NCBI GenBank assembly: GCA_017443405.1
Contig: JAFRXS010000208.1
Span: forward strand, 625-64,624
Length of the DNA stretch: 64,000 nt
Source: Clostridia bacterium
GTDB lineage: Bacteria; Bacillota; Clostridia; Oscillospirales; Acutalibacteraceae
Reading direction: 5' to 3'
A program made the position numbers and the translations under genes. Below are positions 26,165 to 61,540 of this stretch, in pieces. The notes under the pieces were generated by a model. It searched no databases. It was not told the DNA's origin and was given only the letters and a program-made list of their open reading frames with translations. How positions within the stretch are numbered: the first letter of the stretch is position 1; each line of letters opens with the position of its first letter.

Positions 26165-26193
26165 TTGACTTGTGAGCTTATATATGATATAAT
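26165..26193 (+). promoter_or_regulatory. consensus sigma-A promoter heading locus operon 1
   Basis: TTGACT (26165-26170), 17-nt spacer, TATAAT (26188-26193). It sits about 60 nt upstream of the ATG at 26253, which has an AAGAAGG RBS. Confidence 0.65.
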
Positions 26194-26252
26194 TATTATA
26201 GATTGGTATATTGTCCCTTAGTGGTTGATCAGTCGGCCATATTGAAGAAGGC

Positions 26253-27764
26253 ATGGGTTTGAGAGTATTACTGTTTAACGCGAATTTCAACGCGGAGACA
26301 TTGACATATGCAAGAATGAGCGGGTTGCCCCTCGGTGTCATGTCGATTGCGACCTATCTCAATAAAAACGGGCACGAAGCTTTTTTTGTCGACCGCTTCT
26401 ACGACTCGACCCCCCTTGACGAGCTGACCCTGCGCTATTCCCCCGACGTCGTCGGCATCGCGCTTATGTCGGACACGATGCTTCTCGACACGATGCGTTT
26501 AGGCGAGTATTTCAGGGACAATGGCGTACCCGTCGTTATCGGCGGAACGCACGCGTCCATTATCCCCGAGATGCTCATCCGCGAGGAAAAGGCGGATTAC
26601 GTGGTGATCGGCGAGGGGGAGCAGACCTGGCTCGAGCTCGCGGACGCGCTTCGCGACGGCGCCGACCCGCGTAAAGTCCCGGGGCTTTATTATTCCGACG
26701 GCGGGGAGCCTGTGTTCTCCGGTCAGAGAGAGCATATCGATCTTTCCGCTCTGGGGCCGACCGATTTTACCCTCGTGCCGGACGTCAGCAGGTATTTCCA
26801 GTCGGTCTATTTCTACGACAAGATGCTATACCTGTATATGTCGAAGGGCTGCACAGGAACCTGCCGCTTCTGCTTCAACCCCTATTTCCACCGCTGTCAG
26901 CGGCGCGTACGCCCGGTAGAACACCTTTTCGGCGAGATAGAGTATCTGATCCGAGAGTGCGGGCTGAAGACGGTTTATTTTGCCGACGAGCTGTGGGGGC
27001 TTACCCGAAGCGAGCGCGAGAGCTTTTACGCCGAGAAGAAAAGGCGCGGACTCGATTTCGTCTGGGGCTGTCAGACGCGTATCGGCGTGCTGAAACGCGA
27101 CGATATAAAAGAAATGCACGAAAACGGCTGCCGCTGGATAATGTTCGGCGTCGAGGCGCCGCCCGGCAAGCTCGAAAAGCTCGTAGACAAGCGTATCCCC
27201 TATAATCTTATCCAGCCCACGCTTCTCGACTGCCGCGCCGTGGGGATGATAACGAATATCTCGTTTATCATCAATTATCCGTTTACCGAAGAGCAGGATC
27301 TGAGGGATACGGTCTCGTTCGCGAAGACGCTTACCCCGACCTATATCAGCTTCCATTATTACGTTCCCCTTGAAAAAAGCGAGCTTTACGACATCATCGT
27401 GGAAAACGGCATGTACAAGCCGCCCGAAACGCTTGACGAGATGTCGCGCCGCTTTTTGTGGGAAACGGTAATTCCCGAGTTTTCCGACGTTCCCGAGATC
27501 GATTTCAGGGTCGTGCGCGGCTCGTTCCAGCTGAAATCCCTGCTCACCCGCACACCGCGCAGCTATTCCGGCGGGAAATCGTTTATCGTCGAGGCGGTCA
27601 AGAGCGTTCTGCTGAACCTCGGCGCGGGGACGTTCAGGACCCGGGTGACCGGCTTCTTTTATACCGCCAAATACTTTTTCGACACGGTCGGGAGCGTGTT
27701 GCTGCATCCGCGCATAAGAAAAAAATACGGTCTGGAGATCGGCTATATCTTACGCAGCGCGTAA
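26253..27764 (+). CDS. B12-binding-domain radical SAM protein, short class (rSAM-A1)
   Basis: The N-terminal Rossmann-like cobalamin-domain pattern is LRVLLFNAN...PLGVMSIATYLNKNGHEAFFVD...PDVVGIALMS...VPVVIGGTHAS. The 4Fe-4S motif is SKGCTGTCRFC (CxxxCxxC). It is a paralog of 48932..50416(-) and 60051..61517. Confidence 0.8.
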   Translation: MGLRVLLFNANFNAETLTYARMSGLPLGVMSIATYLNKNGHEAFFVDRFYDSTPLDELTLRYSPDVVGIALMSDTMLLDTMRLGEYFRDNGVPVVIGGTHASIIPEMLIREEKADYVVIGEGEQTWLELADALRDGADPRKVPGLYYSDGGEPVFSGQREHIDLSALGPTDFTLVPDVSRYFQSVYFYDKMLYLYMSKGCTGTCRFCFNPYFHRCQRRVRPVEHLFGEIEYLIRECGLKTVYFADELWGLTRSERESFYAEKKRRGLDFVWGCQTRIGVLKRDDIKEMHENGCRWIMFGVEAPPGKLEKLVDKRIPYNLIQPTLLDCRAVGMITNISFIINYPFTEEQDLRDTVSFAKTLTPTYISFHYYVPLEKSELYDIIVENGMYKPPETLDEMSRRFLWETVIPEFSDVPEIDFRVVRGSFQLKSLLTRTPRSYSGGKSFIVEAVKSVLLNLGAGTFRTRVTGFFYTAKYFFDTVGSVLLHPRIRKKYGLEIGYILRSA

Positions 27765-27778
27765 GAGGGAGACAGGAT

Positions 27779-29695
27779 TTGAGCAAAAGAAGGGTCTATC
27801 TGTTCCAGCCCACGTTTATGACGGGGTCTGACGTATATCTGCCGTACGCCATAGGCGCGCTGGCGTCATACGCATGGAAATTTGACTCCGTCCGCGATAA
27901 TTACGAGCTTGCCGGGGCTTTCTTCCTGCGCGAACCCGTAGACGACGTATTCGACAGGGTCGGGGACCCCGACGTCGCGGCTTTCAGCTGCTACATGTGG
28001 AATTACGAGTACAACAAGACCCTCGCTTCGCGTATCAAACGGAAATACCCCGAATGCTTCATCATCTTCGGCGGTCAGCAGGTCGCGCCCGGAGAGGGGG
28101 TCCTCGAGGAGTGTCCGTTTGTCGACGCGATCATCCACAATGAGGGCGAGATACCCTTCCGCGAGCTGCTCGAATGTCTCGCGGCCGGCGGCGACCCCTC
28201 GGAGGTCGGTTCGCTTTCGGTGAGGACGCCTCACGGCATCGTGACGACTCCGCCGTCGAAGAACAGGGATTTTGACTTTCCGTCGCCTTATCAGAGCGGT
28301 TTCTTTGAAAGCATCATCAAAAGATATCCCGATTTGAATTTCGTTCCCCTTGTGGAGACGAACAGGGGCTGCCCGAACAAATGCACGTACTGCAGCTGGG
28401 GCAGCATGAAGGCGGGAGTCAGGCTGTTCCCTATGTCGAGGGTCATGTACGATATAGAATGGTGCAGCAGTCACGGGCTTAAGTATCTCGTCATATCCGA
28501 CGCGAATTTCGGGATCATCCCGCGCGACGAGGAGATAACCGACAGAATAGTCGAGCTCAAAAAAAACACCGGCTGCCCCGAAAAGTTCCAGGTGTCCTAC
28601 ACTAAGGACTCCAACGACCGTGTTTTCAGGATAACCGAAAAACTCAACGCCAATAAGATGGACAAGGGAGTTACGCTGTCCTTCCAGACGATGTCGCCTA
28701 TCGTTCAGAAGAACATCGGCAGGGAAAACATAGATCTGGAAAGCTACAAGGCGCTGCTCAAAAGATATTCCGACGCAGGCATCCCGACTTATACCGAGCT
28801 TATCCTCGGACTTCCGGGCGAGACAGTCGAAAGTCTCACCGACGGCATAGAAGAACTGCTTGAAATGGGGCAGCACGTGGCGTTTTTCGTGCATATGTGC
28901 GAGTGGCTGCCCTGCGCCGAAATGGGAAACCGCGAGTATATGGAAAGATTCGGTCTCAAGTACAGCACGATACCGATAAACAGGGCGCATACCGCAAAAG
29001 GCTCCGGCGACGACATTCCCGAGTATTCGAGGATAATCACCGCGTCGTCGTCCATGTCCTCCGACGACTGGATACAAATGAACCTCATCTCCTACTGCGT
29101 CATCTGCTTCCATCATCTGGGGCTGCTGCAGTGTTTCGCGCTTTATCTCTACCGCGAAAAAGGCATAAGATACGTCGATTTCTATTCCGATCTGCTGAAA
29201 TACCTTCTTGAGAAGGATAACGGCGCGGCGCCGGTGTTCCGCTTTATCCGCGAGAGGCTCGCGGGGATCGTCAACGGCGAGGCGTCAGCCATCTGCTTCG
29301 ACGACAGATTCGGAGACGTCGCCTGGACGTTCGAGGAGTACGCGTATCTTACGGTCGTCGCCGAAAAGGATGAGTTTTATAAGGCCGTCGGGCCGTTCCT
29401 TAAAAAGTACGTCGGAAACGACGGCATATGCGACGAGATACTCCGGTATCAGTCGTTCATTATGAAATCCGTCGGCGATACCCGCCGCGAGTTCACCGGT
29501 ACGTACGACTGGAATAAGTATTTCGTCGCCCTGCGCTCCGGAAAGGACGCCGCGCTTGATAAAAGACCGGTCAGGTACGCGGTCAACGATCCGTCCGCCG
29601 TTCCCTCGTGGGACAGGTACGCCGTCGAAGTAATGTGGTACGGCAGAAAAGGCGGAAAGAACATTTATACCAACGAGATAGAATATGTCGGATGA
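27779..29695 (+). CDS. B12-binding-domain radical SAM protein, long class (rSAM-B1)
   Basis: ORF 27458..29695. The 5' 107 codons overlap the upstream gene and are Arg-rich nonsense. The TTG at 27779 follows GGGAGACAGGA. Supporting sequence: DVAAFSCYMWNYEYNKTLASRIKRKYPECFIIFGGQQV and ETNRGCPNKCTYCSWG. It is a paralog of 30407 and 32335. Confidence 0.8.
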   Translation: MSKRRVYLFQPTFMTGSDVYLPYAIGALASYAWKFDSVRDNYELAGAFFLREPVDDVFDRVGDPDVAAFSCYMWNYEYNKTLASRIKRKYPECFIIFGGQQVAPGEGVLEECPFVDAIIHNEGEIPFRELLECLAAGGDPSEVGSLSVRTPHGIVTTPPSKNRDFDFPSPYQSGFFESIIKRYPDLNFVPLVETNRGCPNKCTYCSWGSMKAGVRLFPMSRVMYDIEWCSSHGLKYLVISDANFGIIPRDEEITDRIVELKKNTGCPEKFQVSYTKDSNDRVFRITEKLNANKMDKGVTLSFQTMSPIVQKNIGRENIDLESYKALLKRYSDAGIPTYTELILGLPGETVESLTDGIEELLEMGQHVAFFVHMCEWLPCAEMGNREYMERFGLKYSTIPINRAHTAKGSGDDIPEYSRIITASSSMSSDDWIQMNLISYCVICFHHLGLLQCFALYLYREKGIRYVDFYSDLLKYLLEKDNGAAPVFRFIRERLAGIVNGEASAICFDDRFGDVAWTFEEYAYLTVVAEKDEFYKAVGPFLKKYVGNDGICDEILRYQSFIMKSVGDTRREFTGTYDWNKYFVALRSGKDAALDKRPVRYAVNDPSAVPSWDRYAVEVMWYGRKGGKNIYTNEIEYVG

Positions 29696-30410
29696 TTACA
29701 GGCTCTCGGTGCTCATCTGCGCCGTAGACGAGACGGAGTCCCTTGAAAAATGCGTCGCTCAGCTGAGGGACGCCGTGGACGCTTACGAATACGTTTTTGT
29801 TCTGTCGCGCGACTGTCTGCCCGAAACGAGGCGGACCGTACTGCGCTTATGCGAGGCGCCGGACTGCAGATACCTTGTCCAGGATTCCTACGGCTACGGC
29901 AACGCGATAAGAAACGGCATAGCCGCTACGGCTGGCACGCATATGCTCATGTGGACCGCGGACGGCGGGCTCGACGTGTCGTCGGTGCCGGAGATGAAAA
30001 GGATATCCGAGAGCGACCCGAAAAATATAGTCAAGGTCAGCAGATGGTTGCCCGGCGGCGGCTTCGTGAACTACGGAAGGTTAAGAAAGATCGCGAATTA
30101 TCTGTCGCAGAAGGCATTCGCCGTTCTGTACGGCGTAAAGCTCACCGACTTTACGAACGGGGCGCTAATCGCCCCCCTCGACTTATTCAAAAACATCAGA
30201 TGGGACAATAAGGATTTCTCCTTCGTTCCCGAAATGATATTCAAGCCCCTGCGCCTCGGCGTGCGTTTCACTGAGGTGCCGTGCGTCAACTACGAGCGCC
30301 GCGAGGGCGTCTCGCACGTGTCCTTCGCCCATCTCGTAAAGTATTATCTGGTCATATTCAGGATCAGATTCGAGGACAGATCGAAATTGATCTTAAACTC
30401 CGGTAAATGA
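29685..30410 (+). CDS. family-2 glycosyltransferase, soluble DPM1/Ppm1-like type
   Basis: LSVLICAVDETESL (GT-A N-terminus), YGYGNAIRNG and WTADGG (DxD-like). There are no TM helices. The gene overlaps both flanking rSAM genes. Confidence 0.7.
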   Translation: MSDDYRLSVLICAVDETESLEKCVAQLRDAVDAYEYVFVLSRDCLPETRRTVLRLCEAPDCRYLVQDSYGYGNAIRNGIAATAGTHMLMWTADGGLDVSSVPEMKRISESDPKNIVKVSRWLPGGGFVNYGRLRKIANYLSQKAFAVLYGVKLTDFTNGALIAPLDLFKNIRWDNKDFSFVPEMIFKPLRLGVRFTEVPCVNYERREGVSHVSFAHLVKYYLVIFRIRFEDRSKLILNSGK

Positions 30411-32338
30411 AAAAACTCTGTTTCGTTCAGCCTAATAACGCGTACGGCGGGTCGTATTATTTTCCCTACGCCTGCGGCTGTCTCGCCGCGTACGCTTACT
30501 CCGACGAACGGATAAGAGCGTCTTACGGAAAACCGGTATTCTTCTACAGGCGCGATCCCGTCGACGAAGTGCTCGACAGGATGGAGGGCGTCGACGTCGC
30601 GGCGTTTTCGTGCCTCGTTTACACGTTCGAGTACAATAAAGCGCTCGCGAAGAAAGTCAAGGAGAGATACCCCGGCTGCGCCGTTGTTTTCGGCGGTCAC
30701 GTGATCTCCGACAATTACGACGTTTTCCCGGAACTGCCTTACGTCGATTACCTCGTTTACGGCGAGGGCGAGCGGGCGTTCAGGGACGTGCTGGACTGCA
30801 TAGACGGCTTGCGCGATCCGCATTCGGTGCCGAATATCGCTTTCCGCGACGGCGGGCGCATAGTCAAAACGCCGCGCGAATACCCGGACTCTCTCGACGA
30901 CCTCCCGTCGCCGTATCTCACGGGCATGTTCGACGGCATAATAGAAGAGGATCCGGACGCGCTTTTCTCCGCGTCGGTCGAGACGAACAGGGGCTGTCCC
31001 TACGGCTGCGCGTACTGCGACTGGAGCTTCACTAAAAAAATACGGGCGTTCCCGATAGACCGGGTCAAGCGGGAGATAGACTGGTTCGGCAGGCACGGTA
31101 TAGACTACGTTTTCTGCACCGACGGCAATTTCGGCATACTCGAGCGCGACGTCGAGATCGCGCGTTTCGTCTGCGAAACGAAGAAAAAATACGGTTTTCC
31201 GCATATTTTCAACGCGGACTACGCGAAAAAGAGCAACGACAGGGTCTTCGATATCTCCCGTATGTTTTTCGATCTGGGACTCACAAAGGGAGTCACGCTG
31301 TCTTTCCAGTCGGTCAACGAACAGGCGCTCAAAAACATCGGCAGGGAGAATTTTTCGCTCGACGAGTTTTCGCGGCTGATAAAAAAATACAACGAGTACG
31401 GCATCCCGACTTACACGGAGATGATACTCGGCCTGCCCGGCGAAACGCGGGACAGCTTCTGCCGCGGACTTTGCGACCTGATAGAATCCGGGCAGCAGAA
31501 CGCGATATCTGTTTTTTCCTGCCAGGTCTATCACAACGCCGTTATGGGGGATCCGGACTACCGGCGGCGCTTCGGGATAAAGACCGCGCACGTGCCCCAG
31601 AACATCTGGCACAGGAGCGTGCAGGAGGACGATATCGCCGAATATACGGACGTCGTCGTCGAGACCGCGACGATGCCGTTCGAGGATACTCTGCGGTGCC
31701 TTATGTTCACCGCGTGCCTCCAGTGTTTCCATAATATCGGTCTTCTCAAGTTTTTCGCGCTTTACCTCAGATATGAGAAAAACGTGAGTTATTACGGTTT
31801 CTACTCGGCGCTGTTTGAATATATACTCAACAGCGAAGGGACGCTCCTCAACTCGATATTCCGCAGGCTCATCTCGGAGTGCAGGGAGTTCAAATACGGC
31901 GAGTGGTCGTATTTCGACCCGAGGTTCGGCGATATCGGCTGGTTCATGGAGGAGGGCGTTTTTATGGAAACGGTCTGCTCTTTCGACCGGTTCAGCCGCG
32001 AGATAACGCCTTTCCTCAGTAGTTTCGGCGTCGCGCCCGACGTATTCGGAGAGCTCCTGCGTTATCAGCGGTTCACTCTTTTGATGCCGGGGATGACTCG
32101 CGCGAGCGCCGAATTCGACTACGACTTCTACTCCTATTTCAACCGCGCGCTCATAGGCGAGCGCAGCCGTCTTGAAAAAAAACGGACCCGGATAAGCGTT
32201 AAGATCGCCGAGCCCGTATCCGACTGGAAGGAATACGCCCTGAAGATAATGCTTCGCGGAAAGAAAAAGGGCAGACCGCTGATCGTAAACGACAGGGAGA
32301 ACGTAGAGATCTCTTACCCGAATGGTGAAGGACAATGA
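30407..32338 (+). CDS. B12-binding-domain radical SAM protein, long class (rSAM-B2)
   Basis: DVAAFSCLVYTFEYNKALAKKVKERYPGCAVVFGGHV and ETNRGCPYGCAYCDWS. ATGA overlaps occur at both ends. Confidence 0.8.
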   Translation: MKKLCFVQPNNAYGGSYYFPYACGCLAAYAYSDERIRASYGKPVFFYRRDPVDEVLDRMEGVDVAAFSCLVYTFEYNKALAKKVKERYPGCAVVFGGHVISDNYDVFPELPYVDYLVYGEGERAFRDVLDCIDGLRDPHSVPNIAFRDGGRIVKTPREYPDSLDDLPSPYLTGMFDGIIEEDPDALFSASVETNRGCPYGCAYCDWSFTKKIRAFPIDRVKREIDWFGRHGIDYVFCTDGNFGILERDVEIARFVCETKKKYGFPHIFNADYAKKSNDRVFDISRMFFDLGLTKGVTLSFQSVNEQALKNIGRENFSLDEFSRLIKKYNEYGIPTYTEMILGLPGETRDSFCRGLCDLIESGQQNAISVFSCQVYHNAVMGDPDYRRRFGIKTAHVPQNIWHRSVQEDDIAEYTDVVVETATMPFEDTLRCLMFTACLQCFHNIGLLKFFALYLRYEKNVSYYGFYSALFEYILNSEGTLLNSIFRRLISECREFKYGEWSYFDPRFGDIGWFMEEGVFMETVCSFDRFSREITPFLSSFGVAPDVFGELLRYQRFTLLMPGMTRASAEFDYDFYSYFNRALIGERSRLEKKRTRISVKIAEPVSDWKEYALKIMLRGKKKGRPLIVNDRENVEISYPNGEGQ

Positions 32339-34245
32339 AAAAGCACGTTTATTTTGTTCAGGTGGGCTTCGAATTCGACGGAGCGGTGTATCTTCCGTAC
32401 GCCGCCGGCGCAATGATCGCTTACGCGCGGACCGTACCTGAGATAACGGATAATTACGATTTCCCGGATATCATCTATATGCGGGAAAAGCTCGCCGACG
32501 CGCTCGAAAAGATAAAGGACCCCGCCGTCGTCGCTTTCTCCTGCAGCGTATGGAATATCGAATACAACAAGGAGCTGGCGAGGCGCGTAAAGGAGCGATA
32601 TCCCGACTGCGTCATCTGCTTCGGCGGTCACAGCGTGCTTGAAAACGGCGAACTCCTCTCTCAGGCGGAATATATCGACATCCTGACCTTCGGCGAGGGC
32701 GAGCAGACGATGACGAACCTGATGCTCAATCTCCTTCACGGAGAGCCAGAAAAAACAAAGAACGCTGCTTTCCGCAGGGGCGGGGAGACGATCTGCACCG
32801 AGAGGGAGTATTACTACGACATTTCGAATTATCCCTCGCCCTATCTGACGGGCGAGTTCGATGAGCTCATGAGCAAAAAGACCGACGTCGAATGGCTGAC
32901 GGTGCTCGAGACCAACCGCGGCTGCCCGTATTCCTGCGCGTACTGCGACTGGACGGGCGGGCGTCGCATGCGCTTTTTCCCGATCGAGAAGGTGCTGGGC
33001 GAGGTCACGTGGCTCGCGGAGCATAAGGTGACCTACTGCTTCTGCGGCGATTCGAATTTCGGTATGTACGACCGCGACGTCGATATCGCGGATTTTATAG
33101 TCGAAACCAAGAAGAAATACGGCTACCCGCAGGTCTTCCGGCCCTGTTACGAAAAGAACAGCGAGGACAGAGTCTTCCGTATCTGCAAGGCGCTCAACAG
33201 CGTCAAGCTCGACAAGGGCGCGACATTCGCCTATCAGACGCTTTGTGACGAAGCGCTTAAAAACATCGGCAGGAAGAATCTGACGATGGAGCATTTCTCC
33301 GGGCTCATGAAAAAATACAACGAGGAGGGCATACCGTCTTATTCGGAGCTCATCCTCGGACTTCCGGGCGAAACGCTGGACAGCTTCTGCCGCGGCATTT
33401 GCCGCCTGCTTGAAAACGGCCAGCACAATTCGCTTTCCGTCTACTACTGCGAGGTGCTTCCGAATTCCCGTCTTGCAGAGCCGGACTATATAAAACAGCA
33501 CGGCATAGACATCATAAGGGTCGCGTTCAACCATCTGCACAGCGCCCCGGGCAAAGACGAGGAGGTAAAAGAATACTCTAACCTCGTCCGGGCGACGGCC
33601 TCGATGAGCCGCGACGACTGGACCGCGTCGAACCTGTTCTCGATATGCGTGCAGGTGTTCCACAGCCTCGGCGTGCTGCGCTGCTTCGGTATGTATCTGC
33701 ACAGCGAGGGCGGCATGAGCTACTACGATTTTTACGGCAGTCTGCTCGAGTTTATCCAAAACTCCGACGGCAGGCTCCATTCCCTTTGGGAGAGCTTCAA
33801 GAACAAGTACGATCACTCGCTCGAGGGCGACTGGAACTATTACAACGAAAAGTTCGGCAACGTGACCTGGTTCTTCGAGGAAGGCGCTTTCATAGAGATA
33901 GCCGACGAGCCCGATCTGTTCTACGGGGAACTGAAGCCGTTCCTCGATTCCCTCGATATGGAGCCGGAGCTTAAAAATCAACTGCTGCGCTATCAGCGGC
34001 TTATCCTGAGGATGCCGGATTCCTCGCCGAGGACGGAGACCTTCGACTGGGATTTCCATTCGTTCATCAACGCGGTATTCCGCAGCGAACCGGCTAAACT
34101 GGTCAAAAAGAAGACAAGGGTGAGCATAAAGCCCGAAATGCATTTCAGGGATATCGCGCAGTACGGCAAGGAAGCCGTCTGGTGGGGCAGACGCCGCGGC
34201 GACACGATGATCTCAAACAGGGAAATGACGGTAGAATATATCTGA
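32335..34245 (+). CDS. B12-binding-domain radical SAM protein, long class (rSAM-B3)
   Basis: AVVAFSCSVWNIEYNKELARRVKERYPDCVICFGGHSV and ETNRGCPYSCAYCDWT. Confidence 0.8.
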   Translation: MKKHVYFVQVGFEFDGAVYLPYAAGAMIAYARTVPEITDNYDFPDIIYMREKLADALEKIKDPAVVAFSCSVWNIEYNKELARRVKERYPDCVICFGGHSVLENGELLSQAEYIDILTFGEGEQTMTNLMLNLLHGEPEKTKNAAFRRGGETICTEREYYYDISNYPSPYLTGEFDELMSKKTDVEWLTVLETNRGCPYSCAYCDWTGGRRMRFFPIEKVLGEVTWLAEHKVTYCFCGDSNFGMYDRDVDIADFIVETKKKYGYPQVFRPCYEKNSEDRVFRICKALNSVKLDKGATFAYQTLCDEALKNIGRKNLTMEHFSGLMKKYNEEGIPSYSELILGLPGETLDSFCRGICRLLENGQHNSLSVYYCEVLPNSRLAEPDYIKQHGIDIIRVAFNHLHSAPGKDEEVKEYSNLVRATASMSRDDWTASNLFSICVQVFHSLGVLRCFGMYLHSEGGMSYYDFYGSLLEFIQNSDGRLHSLWESFKNKYDHSLEGDWNYYNEKFGNVTWFFEEGAFIEIADEPDLFYGELKPFLDSLDMEPELKNQLLRYQRLILRMPDSSPRTETFDWDFHSFINAVFRSEPAKLVKKKTRVSIKPEMHFRDIAQYGKEAVWWGRRRGDTMISNREMTVEYI

Positions 34246-34287
34246 TTTTCGGTACCGGTTTCGTAATGAAGAGCTGAGCCCGTTCTT

Positions 34288-39328: not shown

Positions 39329-39342
39329 GGCAGGTGTCAGGC

Positions 39343-41078: not shown

Positions 41079-41090
41079 CCGGACAACCTC

Positions 41091-41135: not shown

Positions 41136-41144
41136 GGATGACAT

Positions 41145-50416: not shown

Positions 50417-50427
50417 AATAAAATAAC

Positions 50428-50455
50428 TTGACTATAATTCAATTATCATTATAAT
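50428..50455 (+). promoter_or_regulatory. consensus sigma-A promoter for operon 3 (CotH side)
   Basis: TTGACT (50428-50433), 16-nt spacer, TATAAT (50450-50455). Confidence 0.6.
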
Positions 50456-50476
50456 ATATACAGAAGTTCATGTCAA
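50448..50476 (-). promoter_or_regulatory. consensus sigma-A promoter for operon 2 (rSAM-A2 side)
   Basis: On the minus strand: TTGACA (complement 50471-50476), 17-nt spacer, TATAAT (complement 50448-50453). Its -10 overlaps the plus-strand -10 within ATTATAAT. Confidence 0.6.
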
Positions 50477-50534
50477 TATAAATCACCCTTAACGCTGCAG
50501 CGCGACGCGAAGAAAACCGATCACACCGAACGGT

Positions 50535-52547: not shown

Positions 52548-52550
52548 CAG

Positions 52551-54461: not shown

Positions 54462-54531
54462 ACAGGTATCTGTCGGATCGTATCATTATTGAATATCAGT
54501 GTTTTTCTGTAATATCACGGAGGATGCGTCA

Positions 54532-56346
54532 TTGTTTGATAAACGTACCGCCAAAACAGTATATACGGATATCGCATTTATTGTGGCGTTGGTATCGTTT
54601 TGTTCGCTTTTTGTCTATAAGGCGTTTCACTCAGTCTGCGATAACGACGAGAGCTCGATCATTTTTTACGCGCTTAGGTATGTCACAGGCGCGCGCGTAT
54701 TGTTTGAGGAAAGGCTCTCCGGCATCTTCGTTCTGCCCGTCGTAAAGCTGTGGTACGCTCTCGCCGGGACGACCGAGGGCATCGTACTGTTTTCGCGGCT
54801 GTCATTCGTCGCGTCGCAGACGGCGGTTGCCGCTTTCCTTTACTCACGGCTGAGAAAATACGGCGTTTTCTCTGTGCCCGCCGTCCTGATTTGGTATTTC
54901 AACGTCCCGTCCTGGTCGATGACCCTGCTGTATTACAATACCGTAGTCGTCATGATGACGGGCGTCGTCGCAGCGCTGGTGCTATCGATCCCAAAGCGTC
55001 GTTCGGGGCTCCATATGTTCTTTATCGGTTTTGCCGGGGCTGTCGCGATCCTCTGCTCTCCCTTTTCTGCTTCGGCATATTTTGCCTATACCGTCGCGGT
55101 TGCGGTCTGCTTTATCCGAGCGAAAAAACGCCCCGCGAGCTTCGCCGCGCCCGTCATGCTCAGGCCAGGCTCGTGGCTGCTCGTGACGCTCGGAGCTTTC
55201 TTTGTTGCTGCTGCCGTCGTTGTTTACCTGTTTCAAGGGACGTCTCCGGAACAGGTTCTCGCTGAGTATACGTTCTTTAACGGTGACGGTTCGTCCGGCG
55301 GCGCGATATCCGTTATCTTCGGTTCAAAGGATAAACTGGCTCCGCTGTTCCTGGCGTATCTTCCTCTGACTGTCGGAGTCATCCTGCCCCCGTCGATCCT
55401 GACGCTCGCCGCGGCGGTCGATAAAAAACGGGTCGGTCACGGGGAGGTCTACATCATCGCCGGGACTGTCGTCTGTATCGTGTGTGACGCCGTGATCCTG
55501 TTTTATAAAACATACTCAGAAGTAAACAGGGCGCTTGAGAACATTCTGCTTTTGTATGCCGTATTCGCTCTTTACGGTCTGCTTTGCTATCTCGTTACCG
55601 AAAAAAAGGAGCGTTTGGTCTTTACCACGCTGTTTTGCGGAGGTCTTTTTGCCGCGATCATGAGGTGCTGCGAATCGCAAAGCTTCGTATTCGCCGGCGC
55701 TGCGGTGATGTCAGGTTGTCTCGCGGGCGCGGCCGTATCTGCTGGAAAGAAGGCGGAGGAGGGCTTCGTCAGGGGAAGCAAATCAGGGAAAGCGATCGCG
55801 GTCCTGATCGCCGCCGCCATGAGCGTTCAGCTTTTTTCTCAGGTCTTTCTGTTCCTGAATATGAGGTTTTCAGTTGAAAACCACTACGGCGCAAGCATCA
55901 GCGCGGACAGGCTCGACTCTCGTATCGGTTCCGGTCCTCTGAAAGGTATATACACGACTGAAGCCATGGCGGAATACTATTCCGGTATTATGTCGGATAT
56001 CGAAGTTATCAAAGCCGAGACCGAAGGACAGGTCCTTACGACAAACGAGCTCACCTGGATATATCTTGCCCTGGGTGACAGAGCGACCGCTATGTACAGC
56101 GAGTATTTGGACAACGAATGGGTCGACGCAGAGAGTATGCGGCAGTACTACGAGCGTTATCCCGATACGGTCCCGGGCTGCATCTACGTCACATACCGGG
56201 ATGTCTCCTCAACACGTTCCGGAGTCATTCTGCCGTCTGTTCGCGTCGCAGAACCGGAACAGAAGGACCTGTTCAGGGAAATAATCAATAATTATCCGGG
56301 GAGAGTCACGTTCGGGGAATCGGGATATATAATAGATCTTCGATAA
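54532..56346 (+). CDS. GT-C-like polytopic membrane protein (paralog G4 of 6)
   Basis: ORF 54499..56346. The TTG at 54532 lies 9 nt after a GGAGG. Motifs: CDNDESSIIFYALRYVTGARVLFEERLSGIF, GPLKGIYT, and WIYLALGD in the tail. Confidence 0.5.
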   Translation: MFDKRTAKTVYTDIAFIVALVSFCSLFVYKAFHSVCDNDESSIIFYALRYVTGARVLFEERLSGIFVLPVVKLWYALAGTTEGIVLFSRLSFVASQTAVAAFLYSRLRKYGVFSVPAVLIWYFNVPSWSMTLLYYNTVVVMMTGVVAALVLSIPKRRSGLHMFFIGFAGAVAILCSPFSASAYFAYTVAVAVCFIRAKKRPASFAAPVMLRPGSWLLVTLGAFFVAAAVVVYLFQGTSPEQVLAEYTFFNGDGSSGGAISVIFGSKDKLAPLFLAYLPLTVGVILPPSILTLAAAVDKKRVGHGEVYIIAGTVVCIVCDAVILFYKTYSEVNRALENILLLYAVFALYGLLCYLVTEKKERLVFTTLFCGGLFAAIMRCCESQSFVFAGAAVMSGCLAGAAVSAGKKAEEGFVRGSKSGKAIAVLIAAAMSVQLFSQVFLFLNMRFSVENHYGASISADRLDSRIGSGPLKGIYTTEAMAEYYSGIMSDIEVIKAETEGQVLTTNELTWIYLALGDRATAMYSEYLDNEWVDAESMRQYYERYPDTVPGCIYVTYRDVSSTRSGVILPSVRVAEPEQKDLFREIINNYPGRVTFGESGYIIDLR

Positions 56347-56369
56347 GACGTCTGCCCGGGGAGGCGAAT

Positions 56370-58217
56370 ATGAATACCGGCGGTTCTGCCCGCGGAAAAA
56401 TCAGCATATATGACGTGGCTTTTATTGCTGGAGCAATGATCTGCGTCGGGCTGCTCGCGTACAAGGCGTTTTTTTCGTTAGGCTACGATGACGAGAGCGA
56501 GATCATACTCAACTCCCTGCGTTTTGTACGCGGGGACAGGATGCTCGTCGACGACTGGCACGTTTCCCAGTTGAGCTCGTTTTTTCTTTATCCTTTTATC
56601 CTGGCGTATCATAAGCTGACCGGCTCGGCAGAAGGGATCGTTCTTTTCTCCCGCGTCGTTTACGTCTTCGTCAAGACGTTCGTTTCTGCGGCGGCGTATA
56701 TCACGCTGCGCCCGTATAAAAAAGGAGCCGTCGCCGCCTCGCTGCTTTTCCTCATCCACGAGCCGGTCTGGACCTCGTTGACCATTTACTACAACACCGG
56801 TCTGCTTCTTGCCGGCGAGTGCCTTTCGCTTCTGCTGTTTTCCCTTGATTCCGGGCGCGCGCGGCTGAAAACGTATCTTATAGGCGTGTGCTGCGCGTTA
56901 TGCGTCGTCGCCTCGCCCTATACAGCCGTCCTTTTCGCGGGCTATACCGCCGCCGTGACCGCCGCTGCCGTCAAGGGGCGGATAAAAAAAGCGCGCGGCG
57001 CGGACGGAGGGAAAGCCGCAGGCTTTTCTTTGCTGACTGCGAAGAGCTGGCTCACCGTTTCGGCGGGCATAGCGACCGTCGCGCTCGTTTTCTTCGCGTA
57101 TCTGATGAGAAGCAACTCGTTCGGAGAGATAGTCAAAAACCTGCCGATGGTCTTTTATGACGACGAGTACACCGCCGGCGTGCTTTCCGGCTTCGCCGAC
57201 CTGCCGGTCAACATGAAGAGGTATCTGCTTCATGTCGCCTCCGTAATCCCCGTGTGGGCGAGCGCCGCCGGCGCGGCCGTTCTCATAGCCGCAGCCGTCG
57301 ACAGGGGACGGGTCAGACGCCGCATAGTCTATATCGTCCCGATGTTTGCGGTCTGCCTGTTCGGAGTCGTATATCCTTACGCCTCCGGGGATGGAGCGGC
57401 GGGGGATCGCAGATATGAATCGTTGATCTTCGCGGCATTCGGCGTTCTGTGCTATATGCTGACGGTCGGCAGGAATAAAAGAGTTTTTCGTTTTCTGTTC
57501 GTCCCCGGTGCGCTCATGACCATCCTTCGGACGCTGGAGTCCGATATCTTCTTTGCCTCCGGGGCGATGATCGCTCCGGTCGCCCTGACCGGCGCCGCGC
57601 TGATGATCGCAGACTGCTTCCGCGAGATCGTAAAGAACGCGCCGTCAAGGGCTTTCTCCCGCTGCGCGGCGGTATTCGCCGCCCTGTTCTTCGCCGTCCA
57701 GTTCTGCTACCGGTTCGACAATCTGCGTTCGCCCGCCTCCTTCGTGGAGTATGAGTACGGCGACAGCGTCACCGCGGGCAAAATGTCCGAAAGACTCGGG
57801 CGCGGCCCGATGAAAGGGCTTTTTACTGCGAGGTGGACGGCGAGGATGTACTGTTCGGCGCTGGACGACCTCGATCTGATAGCCTCGCGGTGCGACGGGC
57901 CGGTGATGGTCCCCGACGAGGTCTGCTGGATCTATATGTACCTTGACGATATGCCGATGGGCTCGTACAGCGGTTATATCGTCGCCGAAAACTGGGTGGA
58001 GTTCGACAGCGTCAAAATGCGCCGGTATTACGAGCGTCACCCCGAGCGGTATCCGTCCGTTATCTACATTCCGTATTTCACGGCGAATTACGAGCGCAAA
58101 AATCCGGCTCTGCGCGAGGTCGTCGACTCGATAAGGGCAGAGTACCCCGGGGAAATAAATAAAGGTCGGGCGGGATATATCTACTATGTCTCCCGCGGAG
58201 AAACGAATGAGGAATAA
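56370..58217 (+). CDS. GT-C-like polytopic membrane protein (paralog G5 of 6)
   Basis: LGYDDESEIILNSLRFVRGDRMLVDDWHVSQL, GPMKGLFT, WIYMYLDD and PSVIYIPY. Confidence 0.55.
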   Translation: MNTGGSARGKISIYDVAFIAGAMICVGLLAYKAFFSLGYDDESEIILNSLRFVRGDRMLVDDWHVSQLSSFFLYPFILAYHKLTGSAEGIVLFSRVVYVFVKTFVSAAAYITLRPYKKGAVAASLLFLIHEPVWTSLTIYYNTGLLLAGECLSLLLFSLDSGRARLKTYLIGVCCALCVVASPYTAVLFAGYTAAVTAAAVKGRIKKARGADGGKAAGFSLLTAKSWLTVSAGIATVALVFFAYLMRSNSFGEIVKNLPMVFYDDEYTAGVLSGFADLPVNMKRYLLHVASVIPVWASAAGAAVLIAAAVDRGRVRRRIVYIVPMFAVCLFGVVYPYASGDGAAGDRRYESLIFAAFGVLCYMLTVGRNKRVFRFLFVPGALMTILRTLESDIFFASGAMIAPVALTGAALMIADCFREIVKNAPSRAFSRCAAVFAALFFAVQFCYRFDNLRSPASFVEYEYGDSVTAGKMSERLGRGPMKGLFTARWTARMYCSALDDLDLIASRCDGPVMVPDEVCWIYMYLDDMPMGSYSGYIVAENWVEFDSVKMRRYYERHPERYPSVIYIPYFTANYERKNPALREVVDSIRAEYPGEINKGRAGYIYYVSRGETNEE

Positions 58218-60054
58218 GACGCGCGGCGTCGGAAAGATCGATAAATGGGACCTCGTTTTCGCTGCGGGTCTTATTGCCTGCGTCTGTCTTATGCTTTATA
58301 AGGCGCTTATGTCGACCGGCGATGACGACGAGCACGTGCTTATCCTCAACGCCTTCCGTCTTGCCCGGGGCGACCGACTGCTTGTCGACGACTGGCACAT
58401 GTCGCACATGAGCGGCATTTTCCTCGCTCCGTTTCTTTGGGTCTTCCACGCTGTCACCGGCTCATGCGACGGCATGGTACTTTATTCCCGCTGCGTCTTT
58501 ATCGCCGTTCAGGCGGCTGTCGGCGCCGCGACCTATCTCACCCTGCGGAGATACGGCCGTCCGTCCGCAGCGGCTGCGTCGCTCGTTTTCTTTTTCAACG
58601 TGCCGACCTACACCGATATGGTGCTTTACTATAACTCAACGCTCTGTCTGGCGGCTCAGCTCTGCTCTTTGCTGCTTATCTCCGTCTGCGGACGTTTCTC
58701 GTTCGTAAAAGCCGTGCTCGCAGGCGTGCTGTTCTCTGTCTGTGTTATTTCGTCCCCCTACGCCGCATTTATTTTCCTCGCATACACCCTGTCCGTTCCC
58801 GTATACCGCGCGGTCGTAAAGAAACGCGGCGGAGCGTTCGCTCCCGTTTTCGGCTTTAAATGCTGGGCGGGCGTTACTCTGGGCGTCGTTCTTTCGGCGG
58901 CGGTTTTCGCCGCGGCCGTGCTGAGCCGCGCGAGCCTCGACGAGCTTCGCGTGAGCATACCGATGCTGCTGAGCGACGGCGATTATCCCGGCGGCGCGGC
59001 GGACGGCATAATCAATCTGTTCTCGAAGTACAAAAAGTTTTTCACCCGTCACAGCTTTGCCTTCATAGCGCCCTTCGCTGCGGCCGGAGGTGTTCTTGCC
59101 CTCGTCGCGGCGTTTGACCGCGGACGGAAAAGGCGGCGCTGTGTATACGTCCTGCTCGCCTGCGCATGGTACGCGGCGTCTGTCGCCGCGACGCTCCTGC
59201 ATAAAGCTTCCCTGACGGTGAAGCCGCAGATCGCCGTCGCTCTGCCGGGCATGATCTTCACGCTCGCGGGCTTTGTCGTTTATATCTGCGTATCAAAGAA
59301 AAACAAACCGGTCTATCTGATACCGACCGTGCTCGGCCTGCTTGCCGCGTTCGCCAGGAGCTGCGAATCCGAGATGGTAATTTTCGCTTTCGGGACCGTC
59401 GTGCCCGTCTGTCTTACCGGCGCGGTCATGGCGTTCGGCGGCGCCGCGCGCGAGCTCTTTGTCGACGGCGGCGCGCGCGCGGGGCTCAAAAAGGCGGCGG
59501 CAGTTTCGCTTGCCGTTGTCACCGCGCTCGAGCTGTCTGTTCAGGCAGGCGTGAACGTCTACCCCAAATTCAACGACGAGTATACCTATTACGGCGTCGC
59601 CCGAAGCGAAAAGCTCGACACAAGGATAAGCGTCGGCCCGCTTAAGGGGCTTTACACGACCGCGAACGAGGAAAAGCTCTACCTCGACACGCTTGCCGAC
59701 CTCGACCTCATCAAATCCGAGTGCGAAGGGCCCGTCATGGTCGCCTCCAAGCTCTCGTGGGCATATCTGTATATGGATTCGCTGACGGTAGGCGCGTTCA
59801 GCGGCTGCCTTGACAGCAGCGACTGGCTGCCGTACAAGAGCGAAAAGATGAAGCTGTATTTCAAGCAGTATCCCGAGCGTTATCCCGAGTTCATCTATAT
59901 ACCTTATTACGACAACCACGCCAGGGTATATTATCTTCTGAGAGTGAAGACCCCGGTCGAGATACAAAAGGGCATTTTCGAGAACGTCAGAGAGGATTAT
60001 CCCGGCGAGCTCACTCGCGGCAAGGCCGGATATATTATCAGGACGCAGGCATGA
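58207..60054 (+). CDS. GT-C-like polytopic membrane protein (paralog G6 of 6)
   Basis: ORF 58186..60054, with an ATG at 58207 (MRNKTRGVG). Motifs: STGDDDEHVLILNAFRLARGDRLLVDDWHMSHM, GPLKGLYT, WAYLYMDS and PEFIYIPY. Confidence 0.55.
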   Translation: MRNKTRGVGKIDKWDLVFAAGLIACVCLMLYKALMSTGDDDEHVLILNAFRLARGDRLLVDDWHMSHMSGIFLAPFLWVFHAVTGSCDGMVLYSRCVFIAVQAAVGAATYLTLRRYGRPSAAAASLVFFFNVPTYTDMVLYYNSTLCLAAQLCSLLLISVCGRFSFVKAVLAGVLFSVCVISSPYAAFIFLAYTLSVPVYRAVVKKRGGAFAPVFGFKCWAGVTLGVVLSAAVFAAAVLSRASLDELRVSIPMLLSDGDYPGGAADGIINLFSKYKKFFTRHSFAFIAPFAAAGGVLALVAAFDRGRKRRRCVYVLLACAWYAASVAATLLHKASLTVKPQIAVALPGMIFTLAGFVVYICVSKKNKPVYLIPTVLGLLAAFARSCESEMVIFAFGTVVPVCLTGAVMAFGGAARELFVDGGARAGLKKAAAVSLAVVTALELSVQAGVNVYPKFNDEYTYYGVARSEKLDTRISVGPLKGLYTTANEEKLYLDTLADLDLIKSECEGPVMVASKLSWAYLYMDSLTVGAFSGCLDSSDWLPYKSEKMKLYFKQYPERYPEFIYIPYYDNHARVYYLLRVKTPVEIQKGIFENVREDYPGELTRGKAGYIIRTQA

Positions 60055-61517
60055 ACGTATTGCTCATAGAACCCGCGGTCGGCTTTTACGACCGTACTAT
60101 GTCGACTCCGCTGGGGCTTCTCTCCATCGGGTCCTATTTGAAGTATCACGGTCATAACGTCCGCATCCTTGACAGGAGCCTCGAAAAAACGACTCTGAAA
60201 ACGGTCTGCGATGAGTTCCGCCCCGACGTCGCCGGCGTTTCCGTCATGTCGTCAAGAGGACTTTCCGACGCGATCGGGGTTTCAAAGCTTCTTAAGTCAT
60301 TCGGTCTTACCGTCGTCTGGGGCGGTCAGCTGCCCACGTTTTATCCTGAGCTCGTTATTGAAAAGGAGTATGTGGATATCGTGTCCGTGGGCGAGGGCGA
60401 GGAGACGTGGCTGGAGCTTCTTGACCGGTTCTCCAAGGGCGCAGATATCGACGGAGTACTCGGCGTGGTTTATAAAAAAGACGGCGCCGTCATCCGTACC
60501 GCTTGCCGCCCGTTCAGCGACCTCAGCTCTTTCCCGCCGACGGATTGGTCGCTGATAGACGTGCCCAAATATATGCAGACGTACATCGGCTGCAAAAAAA
60601 TGATGTACCTTTATTCCTCCAAGGGCTGCCCGGGGCGCTGCGCGTTCTGCTCAAACGTCACCTACCACAAAAGCACGCACCGCGACCGGCCGAACGAACA
60701 GGTCGTCGCCGAGATCAGGTATCTTTACGAGAACTACGGGCTGGACGGCGTTTACTTCTCAGACGAGGTCTGGCGCCTCAGGCGCTCCGATATGCAGGAT
60801 TTCTGCCGCCGCATGAAGGAGGAGGGTATGCCCGTCAGGTGGGGCGTCGACCTGCGCGTCGGCATATTCAACGAGGAGGATTACCGCCTTATGTATGAGG
60901 CGGGCTGCCGGTGGATCTTCTTCGGCATAGAGAGCGGCTCGCGCGAGATGCAGCGTCTGATACACAAGAACATAGACTACGACGCGATAAAACCGACTGT
61001 TGAGCTTCTCAACCGCATCGGCTATACGACCATGTCGTCCTTTATCGTCGGTTTTCCCGACGAGACCGAACAGCAGCTTCGCGACACGGCCGCGATGCTC
61101 AATTCACTTCCGATCGGCCTCACGCCGATCTTCCACTTCACCCCGCTCCCCGGCACGGAGCTTTACGAAAAACTGGTCGCCGACGGACGGCTGATCCCGC
61201 CGCGCAGGCTCGAGGACCTGCTCGAGGTCATACCGACCGAGACCTTGGGCGTCAATTACTCCGCCGTACCCGACCGGGACCTCAAGGTCGTTCGCAACTG
61301 GTTCCACTGGAAGAGCTTCACGAAGAAAAACGCCATTCAGGACTCAAAGCCGTTCGAGTTCGCGCGGCAGACGATCAAAAGCACGCTGAAAGAGATCTCA
61401 AAAATGGGGTTCCACGGTTTGTTTGTGAACGTCTTTTCCGCCGCTTTTGAGTTCCTTTACGTGTTTTGGTATTCGCATATGTTTCCGGGCGTAAAGAAAA
61501 AATACGGACTGAGGTGA
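60051..61517 (+). CDS. B12-binding-domain radical SAM protein, short class (rSAM-A3)
   Basis: PLGLLSIGSYLKYHGHNVRILD, PDVAGVSVMS, LTVVWGGQLPT and SKGCPGRCAFC. An ATGA overlap links it to G6. Confidence 0.8.
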   Translation: MNVLLIEPAVGFYDRTMSTPLGLLSIGSYLKYHGHNVRILDRSLEKTTLKTVCDEFRPDVAGVSVMSSRGLSDAIGVSKLLKSFGLTVVWGGQLPTFYPELVIEKEYVDIVSVGEGEETWLELLDRFSKGADIDGVLGVVYKKDGAVIRTACRPFSDLSSFPPTDWSLIDVPKYMQTYIGCKKMMYLYSSKGCPGRCAFCSNVTYHKSTHRDRPNEQVVAEIRYLYENYGLDGVYFSDEVWRLRRSDMQDFCRRMKEEGMPVRWGVDLRVGIFNEEDYRLMYEAGCRWIFFGIESGSREMQRLIHKNIDYDAIKPTVELLNRIGYTTMSSFIVGFPDETEQQLRDTAAMLNSLPIGLTPIFHFTPLPGTELYEKLVADGRLIPPRRLEDLLEVIPTETLGVNYSAVPDRDLKVVRNWFHWKSFTKKNAIQDSKPFEFARQTIKSTLKEISKMGFHGLFVNVFSAAFEFLYVFWYSHMFPGVKKKYGLR

Positions 61518-61540
61518 CCCTCAGTCCGTATTCGTTTATT
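61502..61540. terminator. bidirectional terminator closing operon 3 and the convergent acyltransferase gene
   Basis: ATACGGACTGAGG-TGAC-CCTCAGTCCGTAT, a 13-14 bp stem. The rSAM-A3 stop codon lies in the loop. An A-run precedes the stem and a T-rich tail follows it. Confidence 0.7.

Follow-up and report, generated by a model that had tools for sequence, protein, structure and literature searches.

A 36-kb gene cluster joining cobalamin-type radical SAM enzymes to GT-C-like membrane proteins in an uncultured Oscillospirales bacterium: a candidate cell-envelope glycosylation locus

A 64,000-nucleotide (nt) stretch from an uncultured rumen bacterium (Clostridia; Oscillospirales; Acutalibacteraceae; assembly GCA_017443405.1, contig JAFRXS010000208.1, positions 625 to 64,624 of the forward strand), here called the window, contains a 36-kb gene cluster organised in three tightly packed transcription units. 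Its 23 genes encode six B12-binding radical S-adenosylmethionine (SAM) enzymes, two family 2 glycosyltransferases (GT2), one DegT-type aminotransferase, two CotH-fold proteins and twelve polytopic membrane proteins. The gene map is based on a mechanical list of open reading frames (ORFs) and on Pfam and NCBIfam scans of all 23 ORFs, numbered g01 to g23. Radical SAM proteins of about 490-500 amino acids (aa) are called rSAM-A and those of about 640 aa rSAM-B; M420, M630/M615 and M250 denote three families of membrane proteins.

Operon 1 (26253-41078, + strand) encodes rSAM-A1, rSAM-B1, a soluble GT2, rSAM-B2, rSAM-B3, M420a-d, g10 and g11, in that order. Operon 2 (50416-41145, - strand) encodes rSAM-A2, a GT2 with two C-terminal transmembrane (TM) helices, the DegT protein and M630a-c, and operon 3 (50535-61517, +) encodes two CotH proteins with Flg_new repeats, M615a-c and rSAM-A3. 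Most junctions in the locus overlap or are a few bases long; in operon 1 they range from -85 to +42 nt, with overlap in most. A promoter-like site precedes operon 1 at 26165-26193 (+; TTGACT-17-TATAAT, 11/12 matches, extended TG), and an overlapping divergent pair at 50428-50476 serves operons 2 and 3 (- strand, 50476-50448, 12/12; + strand, 50428-50455, 11/12). The convergent operons 1 and 2 share a bidirectional terminator hairpin at 41089-41137 (22-bp perfect stem, -43 kcal/mol, z = -9.2). A second hairpin at 61501-61532 (14-15-bp stem, T-run on both strands) is common to operon 3 and a convergent acyltransferase gene. An earlier note on this DNA had proposed the three dense units, these promoters and hairpins and most of the gene inventory. 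The units agree with the ORF list and junction spacing, the signals are present, and the inventory (three radical SAM proteins of about 490-500 aa, one per operon; three of about 640 aa in operon 1; a soluble and a GtrB/ArnC-type GT2; DegT; two CotH proteins; four paralogues of about 420 aa and six of about 615-650 aa) agrees with Pfam matches, motifs, sizes, TM predictions and pairwise identities.

Pfam B12-binding and Radical_SAM domains occur together in g01, g02, g04, g05, g12 and g23, and each protein has exactly one CxxxCxxC motif. The three rSAM-B proteins (about 636-643 aa, mutual identity 36-42%) are all in operon 1. For rSAM-B1 (g02, 27779-29695, +, about 638 aa) the start was revised from the sequence to a TTG at about 27779 that follows GAGGGAG, in place of the GTG at 27458 in the mechanical ORF list; the protein is 36-40% identical to g04 and g05. 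rSAM-B2 (g04, 30407-32338, +, 643 aa) carries its motif as CPYGCAYC, and rSAM-B3 (g05, 32335-34245, +, 636 aa) is 42% identical to it. A search of Protein Data Bank (PDB) sequences with g04 retrieves TokK (7kdx; E 1.4e-104, 354 bits, residues 18-586) and CysS (9n1b; E 8.5e-49). Both TokK and CysS use cobalamin and radical SAM chemistry to methylate an unactivated carbon several times in a row. By this measure the rSAM-B proteins are close homologues of both, and the traits of class B cobalamin-dependent methyltransferases (a B12-binding Rossmann domain, CxxxCxxC and full-length homology to TokK) are found in the g02/g04/g05 type. Their B12-binding scores are 28-34 bits against a cutoff of 32.1, with g02 below it. 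Scores against the NCBIfam KedN5 family (NF033712) are 222-243 bits (222 for g02) and cover only profile positions 16-399 of 624; since they are so far below the curated cutoff of 700 bits, the rSAM-B proteins are relatives of this family, not members. They share their full-length architecture, motif and B12-binding domain with TokK/ThnK (carbapenem side chain) and CysS (cystobactamid). Unlike those enzymes, they are encoded in a membrane-protein and sugar locus rather than an antibiotic cluster, as multiple paralogues or fused doublets.

The rSAM-A proteins (488-503 aa, mutual identity 34-36%) are distributed one per operon: rSAM-A1 (g01, 26253-27764, +, 503 aa; B12-binding 61.7 bits, Radical_SAM 46.5 bits, CTGTCRFC at residue 200), rSAM-A2 (g12, 48932-50416, -; 50.1 and 69.9 bits) and rSAM-A3 (g23, 60051-61517, +; 60 and 79.9 bits). 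In NCBIfam g01 matches QCMT, BchE and HpnJ weakly, below cutoff. In the PDB search with g12 the best relatives of solved structure are QCMT (9ccb, 5e-22) and, over the radical SAM core, AprD4 (3.5e-21); entry 9CCB is QCMT (PMC12931638). The rSAM-A proteins are described here as generic class-I B12-dependent radical SAM enzymes, for which some radical step is predicted.

Two glycosyltransferases accompany them. The soluble enzyme (g03, GT2s, 29685-30410, +, 241 aa) scores 35 bits to Pfam Glycos_transf_2, has no TM helix, and matches AglJ and dolichyl-phosphate hexose transferase weakly in NCBIfam; in relatives of the locus its gene is always located among rSAM-B genes. The second (g13, GT2m, 47966-48916, -; Pfam GT2 67.6 bits) combines a GT2 domain with two C-terminal TM helices (237-255 and 260-278) and is homologous over its full length to polyprenyl-phosphate glycosyltransferases of the GtrB/ArnC type, namely GtrB sll0501 (5ekp; E 4e-30 over residues 5-310) and ArnC (E 7e-22). 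The adjacent g14 (46864-47976, -) encodes a DegT/DnrJ/EryC1 sugar aminotransferase (Pfam 362 bits). Operon 3 begins with two membrane-anchored CotH-fold proteins with Flg_new repeats, g18 (50535-52547, +; CotH 73.9 bits, Flg_new 26.6 bits, TM helix 55-73) and g19 (52551-54461, +; CotH 83.7 bits, TM helix 13-31), which are 44% identical and exceed the Pfam gathering score of 23.8 bits. A single-sequence search with g19 against PDB sequences returned nothing useful.

The twelve polytopic proteins comprise four M420 paralogues, six paralogues of 615-651 aa, g10 and g11, and none has a Pfam or NCBIfam match. The six large paralogues form one superfamily, with 26-73% identity overall and 26-28% between M630 and M615. 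M630a-c (635-651 aa) are g15 (44955-46862, -), g16 (43070-45025, -; 73% identical to g15 and 40% to g17) and g17 (41145-43067, -); the true start of g16 is probably downstream of the listed TTG. M615a-c (615-622 aa), placed by comparison of the paralogues, are g20 (54499-56346, +; 26-32% identical to other members), g21 (56370-58217, +) and g22 (58186-60054, +). One member, g17, was modelled with AlphaFold from a 20-sequence alignment (predicted local distance difference test score, pLDDT, 80.3). Hydropathy gives 8-11 peaks; the model has about 13-14 long helices followed by a 170-residue alpha/beta domain. This resembles the architecture of glycosyltransferases of the C fold (GT-C), in which about 11-13 N-terminal TM helices precede a soluble domain.

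Foldseek comparison of the M630 model with the PDB places STT3, AglB, AftA, OST and EmbA/B at the top (probability 0.87-1.00, E 5.5e-4 to 0.3). The top seven matches are all GT-C enzymes at probability 1.0; E values for STT3, AglB, AftA and EmbB are 5.5e-4 to 4e-3 and TM-scores 0.36-0.46 (0.32-0.46 in the wider list). Transporters reach a probability of 0.03-0.14. In the loop after TM1, D47/E48 is near-invariant and R57, G61 and R63 are invariant. The K/R-rich N-terminus would place this first loop outside the cytoplasm, and D47/E48 recall the loop-1 acidic motif of GT-C enzymes. The proteins belong to no curated GT-C family (PMT, PMT_2/ArnT, STT3, YfhO, GT87 and others) in Pfam or NCBIfam at E <= 0.01, and the M630 profile found nothing among PDB sequences. 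Taken together, the modelling supports a GT-C transferase fold for M630/M615 rather than a transporter fold, as the earlier note had suggested for these six paralogues. A polyprenyl-phosphate-linked donor would fit their genomic context with the GtrB/ArnC-like GT2. An M630-like gene (27% identical, no Pfam match) also occurs alone in human-gut metagenome contigs (L035-L048 and L050-L058), next to serine dehydratase and haloacid dehalogenase (HAD) genes and with no radical SAM gene nearby; the superfamily therefore extends beyond radical SAM loci. Searching the word index again with the M630 alignment added nothing to the 17 proteins already found.

The M420 paralogues are g06 (M420a, 34288-35544, +; 10 TM helices, 48% identical to g07), g07 (M420b, 35537-36814, +), g08 (M420c, 36789-38078, +; 36-39% identical to the others) and g09 (M420d, 37994-39328, +; 33-39%), with mutual identities of 33-48% overall. 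M420 is a real family without a Pfam entry, since an exhaustive profile search recovers about 900 representatives at E < 1e-3 and 213 at E < 1e-30 (50% clustering). In the modelled member, g07 (pLDDT 86.6), TM-scores above 0.3 are reached only to PglB (0.39) and DPY19 (0.43-0.46), at probabilities of 0.38-0.66, and the M420 profile retrieved nothing useful from PDB sequences. Conserved residues are D56, G60, F61, D142, W145, N232, Y256, S362, D364 and R367, the first three lying in the loop after TM1. The first 19 residues include six K/R, favouring a topology with the N-terminus inside (N-in); the conserved polar residues would then face outward, and M420 shares with GT-C enzymes an acidic residue in loop 1. 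The fold thus points weakly to GT-C, and the assignment draws mainly on context and topology.

Natural fusions add to this picture. In P0051 and P0106 a signal anchor is followed by CotH, an extra TM helix and M420, so the CotH fold is physically tied to the M420 family; the domain order in P0051 requires the N-in topology of M420. In 31 instances among the related loci, and in almost all of these loci, a 230-293-aa polytopic protein, M250, follows M420 on the same strand. These proteins are very poorly conserved (mean identity 21%), which argues against a catalytic role for g10. A profile built from the 31 M420-downstream proteins matches g10 (39307-40173, +, 6 TM helices; hmmsearch E 4.9e-12) and, weakly, g11 (40173-41078, +, 7 TM helices; 5.8e-4). 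The 973-aa protein P0037 joins a 13-TM N-terminal half, which matches g10 (2.5e-11) and weakly g11 (9.5e-5), to a C-terminal M420 half, an arrangement that points to a single complex of g10, g11 and M420. The earlier note had listed g10 and g11 as orphans. That label does not stand for g10, whose profile match makes it a conserved, obligate and subunit-like partner of M420; g11 is probably M250-like and no orphan either.

The co-occurrence of these families was examined by scanning genomes with a motif from a 19-sequence M420 alignment, which found 27 loci. Linkage was counted within 10 kb, and 22 of the 27 have a B12-dependent radical SAM gene at that distance. A g05 orthologue lies immediately upstream of M420 in most related loci, and in most of those 22 a gene of this rSAM-B3 type directly abuts M420; four have rSAM-A instead, three of them together with a GtrB-like GT2. 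The hosts are ruminant-gut metagenome-assembled genomes of Acutalibacteraceae, Oscillospiraceae and Ca. Fimenecus (uncultured Oscillospirales). The set of rSAM-A, rSAM-B, GT2s, GtrB-like GT2, DegT, M420 and M630 recurs in five loci (L001-L003, L033 and L034), with CotH in L001 only. L001 is a close relative (72-78% nucleotide identity) with the same set and fewer paralogues. Proteins of L002 and L003 are about 30-60% identical to those of the window; both loci retain the gene order rSAM-B1, GT2s, fused double rSAM-B (then rSAM-B3 in L002), have rSAM-A, M630, M420 and M250 as well, and add genes for DegT, an FdtA-like protein, a short-chain dehydrogenase/reductase (SDR), a GHMP kinase, a nucleotidyltransferase (NTP-transferase) and a carbamoyltransferase. 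The fused protein of these distant relatives contains two rSAM-B units in about 1288 aa (L002 4208-8071; L003 4502-8368). The earlier note had asked whether the families are found together in other genomes, and they are.

Within these loci a typical cassette starts with an HddC-GmhB fusion, an SDR (311 aa), a cupin (124 aa) and one to five rSAM-B genes; GT2s is present when there are at least three rSAM-B genes, and M420, M250, an RmlD-like SDR (293 aa) and an HddA-like kinase (329 aa) follow. Three to five rSAM-B paralogues per locus, or fused doublets, are found in relatives. The sugar genes of the cassette are predicted to encode enzymes of a GDP-heptose or 6-deoxyheptose route. Most score below their equivalog cutoffs, the GmhB half excepted (153 bits against 149.6). 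From the kinase, HddC-GmhB, SDR dehydratase/reductase, cupin and NTP-transferase genes it follows that the cassette processes a nucleotide sugar; the absence of such genes is particular to the window locus. Five loci have M420-M250 and no radical SAM gene at all. Two of them (L006 and L013) keep the heptose genes, and the radical SAM enzymes therefore appear as an optional tailoring layer on a sugar-handling core. Another of the five, L026 (8338-11983), has an ABC-2 exporter (membrane protein and ATPase) directly upstream of M420-M250, followed by a gene for a 2379-aa protein, so that the M420 module here belongs to another surface-polymer setting.

A second recurrent sub-cassette consists of an NTP-transferase, a divergent B12-dependent radical SAM protein, rSAM-A and a GtrB-like GT2, followed by M420 and M250 (L025, L027) or by M630 (L034). 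L022 has only the rSAM-A, GT2 and M420-M250 part, and the window and L001 have the core (rSAM-A, GtrB-like GT2, and M630 after DegT) without the NTP-transferase and the divergent radical SAM gene. The slot downstream of the GtrB-like GT2 is thus filled by M420 and M250 in L022, L025 and L027 and by M630 in the window, L001 and L034. This shared position after a lipid-carrier GT2 is the strongest contextual argument that both families are outward-facing transferases. An amidohydrolase gene lies beside the NTP-transferase/rSAM-A cassette in L025 (4074-5360). Its product resembles 5'-deoxyadenosine and methylthioadenosine/S-adenosylhomocysteine deaminases (331 bits to the 5'-deoxyadenosine deaminase model, below cutoff) and could salvage radical SAM by-products.

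Conservation is uneven between the window and L001. The block from the 3' part of rSAM-B1 through GT2s and rSAM-B2 to rSAM-B3 (window 28958-34772; L001 16132-21920) is 94.5% identical in nucleotide sequence and 98-99% in protein sequence; in the remainder, nucleotide identity is 69-78%, and the membrane and CotH proteins are 62-75% identical. This looks like recent lateral exchange of the radical SAM cassette or strong diversification of surface-facing genes.

One further gene probably belongs to the system as a fourth unit. An Acyl_transf_3/HGSNAT-type membrane acyltransferase (Pfam; 61546-62673, -, promoter-like site 62739-62711) is encoded just past the end of the 35-kb locus first described. 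It is likely to be part of the system because the same gene adjoins CotH in L001; its role might be, for example, O-acylation of the product. Pfam finds no phosphoglycosyltransferase, Wzx/Wzy/Wzz, ABC exporter, LCP protein, regulator or nucleotide-sugar synthase in 26165-62700, in line with what had been reported before. A Wzx/Wzy- or ABC-dependent capsule, O-antigen or teichoic acid locus was therefore rejected, its defining genes being absent.

Several known systems share the logic of this locus, yet it fails membership of each. The Gtr systems of enterobacterial phages (GtrA/GtrB/GtrC) and the CsbB/GtcA/YfhO systems of teichoic acids also have a GtrB-type GT2 with C-terminal TM helices, followed by variable polytopic proteins with active-site residues facing outward, as predicted for those of the locus, and the array of divergent membrane transferases beside a conserved cytoplasmic part recalls the serotype-specific gtrC genes. 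Unlike them, the locus has no GtrA/GtcA homologue, its membrane proteins match no Pfam GT-C family, it adds six B12-dependent radical SAM enzymes, DegT and CotH, and where they have a single transferase it has ten putative ones. The Arn pathway for aminoarabinose on lipid A (ArnB, ArnC, ArnT) is paralleled by operon 2 in both logic and gene order: a DegT-type aminotransferase, an ArnC-like GT2 and GT-C-fold proteins. Unlike that pathway, the locus has no ArnA, ArnD or ArnE/F by Pfam, only the ArnB-like and ArnC-like genes; M630 is not an ArnT/PMT_2 member, and a B12-dependent radical SAM protein takes the place of the oxidative decarboxylase as upstream partner. Lipid A is an unlikely acceptor because the host belongs to the Oscillospirales (Clostridia). 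The mycobacterial arrays that use Ppm1 or decaprenylphosphoryl-arabinose (DPA) donors (EmbA/B/C, AftA-D, PimE) likewise comprise multiple paralogous GT-C-fold enzymes supplied with lipid-linked donors outside the membrane, and two of them, AftA and EmbB, rank with the best structural matches of M630. The arrays differ in belonging to another phylum, in showing no sequence similarity, in the absence here of arabinose or mannose donor genes and in lacking a radical SAM arm.

Two further comparisons concern parts of the system. The GDP-6-deoxy-heptose pathways of Campylobacter and Yersinia capsules (HddA, GmhB, HddC, dehydratase, epimerase, reductase) have counterparts in the related loci, not in the window: an HddA-like kinase, an HddC-GmhB fusion, two SDRs and a cupin surround rSAM-B and M420 there. 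We know of no radical SAM enzyme or GT-C-like partner in these pathways. The pel exopolysaccharide loci of Gram-positive bacteria also come with a CotH-like gene, in non-sporulating contexts (PMC7112168). Its companions there, a polyphosphate polymerase, DUF4956 and DUF4832, are all missing from this locus; here, by contrast, CotH is associated with M420, and P0051 and P0106 are fusions of the two. Full-text literature searches returned no pathway that combines TokK-type methylases with lipid-carrier glycosylation, and no such locus. This agrees with the earlier statement that the gene set corresponds to no characterised pathway, as do the blank Pfam and NCBIfam results for the twelve membrane proteins.

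The reading that best accommodates these findings is a cell-envelope glycosylation system that works through a lipid carrier, as in Gtr, Arn and CsbB-YfhO, and has a radical SAM arm for sugar tailoring; we put its probability at roughly 0.55. In the cytoplasm, rSAM-B enzymes would C-methylate sugars at unactivated carbons, once or several times and possibly iteratively, rSAM-A enzymes would perform a radical step on sugars, and DegT would transaminate a sugar. The GtrB/ArnC-like g13, possibly with g03, would load the sugars onto polyprenyl phosphate, and the loaded sugars would be flipped across the membrane. At the outer face, M630/M615 and M420, the latter in complex with subunits of the g10/g11 type, would transfer them to a wall polymer, lipid or protein acceptor, and the membrane-anchored CotH proteins and the flanking Acyl_transf_3 protein may act on the same extracytoplasmic product. 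The domain identities, folds, fusions, gene linkage and taxonomic spread are observed; the donor, the chemistry, the order of steps and the acceptor are what we infer from them. The earlier note had arrived at a similar scheme of lipid-linked donors, a GT-C array and a radical SAM arm. It would have been overturned by a characterised pathway with this gene set, by families that do not co-occur in other genomes or by large membrane paralogues that fold as transporters; it survived all three, and the present analysis supports it.

A number of observations weigh against lipid-carrier glycosylation. The structural resemblance of M630 to GT-C enzymes is of modest strength (TM-score at most 0.46, E about 1e-3), the M420 model has no significant Foldseek match in the PDB (best E 0.28), profile-profile comparison with hhalign shows no relation between M420 and M630, and positive-inside counting could not fix the membrane side of the M630 C-terminal domain. 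The window locus has no nucleotide-sugar synthesis genes, flippase homologue or recognisable acceptor-specific gene. Minimal cassettes (L004, L006, L009, L011 and L013) have no GT2 to load a lipid carrier, so loading would be encoded elsewhere or done differently. The substrates of TokK and CysS are small-molecule antibiotics, not sugars, and a CotH kinase outside the cytoplasm has no obvious ATP supply or phosphate donor.

Some of these points can also be accommodated if the membrane paralogues are polymerases or ligases of the Wzy/WaaL kind, flippases or exporters, with the sugars of what would still be a surface glycan made and joined in the cytoplasm. The lack of a significant GT-C fold match for M420, the minimal cassettes without a lipid-loading GT2 and the ABC-2 exporter next to M420-M250 in L026 would all agree with such an arrangement. 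We consider it unlikely, although it is the strongest of the alternatives: GT-C transferases account for all of the best M630 matches, flippases and transporters of the MFS and MATE families stay at a probability of 0.14 or less, and a GtrB/ArnC-type enzyme, the classic partner of GT-C transferases, is encoded directly upstream. Among the matches listed, neither model retrieves RodA, FtsW or WaaL; the Wzx-type flippase WzxE turns up for M630 alone (probability 0.07) and MurJ for M420 alone (0.04).

A locus that tailors a membrane lipid or glycolipid, by methyl-branching of polyprenyl or acyl chains or by modifying a head group as HpnI/HpnJ do for hopanoids, with the membrane proteins as lipid-handling enzymes, is somewhat less probable again. 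Many B12-dependent radical SAM enzymes do act on lipids, twelve integral membrane proteins occur with no acceptor-specific gene, and rSAM-A matches HpnJ, HpnR and a ladderane-lipid family in NCBIfam. Lipid-modifying radical SAM enzymes are also the topic of a 2026 review (PMC13459092). The NCBIfam matches are weak, however, and far below cutoff (60-105 bits against 360-650); the genes found in relatives belong to nucleotide-sugar rather than lipid synthesis, and the conserved M420 residues and the CotH domains are placed on the outer side.

A cluster that makes a glycosylated small molecule, aminoglycoside-like or other, as a secondary metabolite, with TokK/GenK-like tailoring and membrane proteins for export or self-resistance, is improbable and was rejected together with a cluster for a ribosomally synthesised and post-translationally modified peptide (RiPP), the defining genes of both being absent. 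TokK, CysS and the KedN5 family, to which rSAM-B is most closely related among characterised proteins, all belong to antibiotic pathways, and AprD4 and DegT-type enzymes occur in aminoglycoside pathways. Against this, Pfam finds no scaffold-forming enzyme (polyketide synthase, nonribosomal peptide synthetase, cyclitol synthase or carbapenem synthase) in the locus, 12 of the 23 genes, arranged as paralogous arrays, encode polytopic membrane proteins, a cell-surface Flg_new repeat is present in CotH, and the pairing of a GtrB/ArnC-like GT2 with GDP-heptose genes is typical of envelope glycans. A RiPP pathway with PoyC-like methylation of a ribosomal peptide has very little to commend it: B12-dependent C-methylases are common in such clusters and weak NCBIfam matches to rSAM_ocin_1 and ApyD exist, but Pfam finds no protease, RiPP recognition element or ABC exporter in the locus, the sugar-pathway context is conserved in relatives, and the junctions, which overlap or are at most 42 nt long, leave no room for a precursor gene; the earlier note had likewise recognised no small precursor-peptide ORF.

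Apart from the acyltransferase gene, the locus is flanked by housekeeping genes with no relation to it (ThyA, an EPSP-synthase-family protein, PGM, MFS, MetH-like, MTHFR, GDPD and others), and an Rfam scan of the whole window, which would include a cobalamin riboswitch, found no family. The MetH-like cobalamin-dependent methionine synthase and MTHFR genes (22715-26042, -) lie directly upstream of a locus with a high demand for SAM and B12; this may be coincidence. A CHAP-domain protein with a type I dockerin is encoded at 10563-12773 (+), and from the dockerin it follows that the host probably carries cohesin-dockerin (cellulosome-type) surface assemblies.

A more specific form of the lipid-carrier glycosylation model is tentative, and we hold it with less than even confidence. 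In this form the envelope glycan would contain sugars with C-alkyl branches or chain extensions (methyl, ethyl, isopropyl) made by iterative TokK-like methylation; two GT-C-like families not recognised before, M630 and M420 (the latter with M250), would deliver these sugars, and extracytoplasmic CotH would act on a glycan rather than a protein. Iteratively C-alkylated sugars are, to our knowledge, not known in primary bacterial glycobiology. If the model is correct, cobalamin radical SAM methylases would take part in surface-glycan biosynthesis in addition to the antibiotic, cofactor and lipid pathways to which nearly all known examples belong, and abundant uncultured Oscillospirales of the rumen and gut would carry undescribed sugar structures. 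A function could be proposed for three unannotated membrane-protein families, of which M420 alone has about 900 representatives. Extracellular CotH-fold proteins would gain a concrete partner through the fusions, which bears on the role of CotH outside spores. The combination of a conserved radical SAM cassette with divergent membrane proteins would point to diversification of the cell surface, which may be relevant to phage-host interactions in the rumen.

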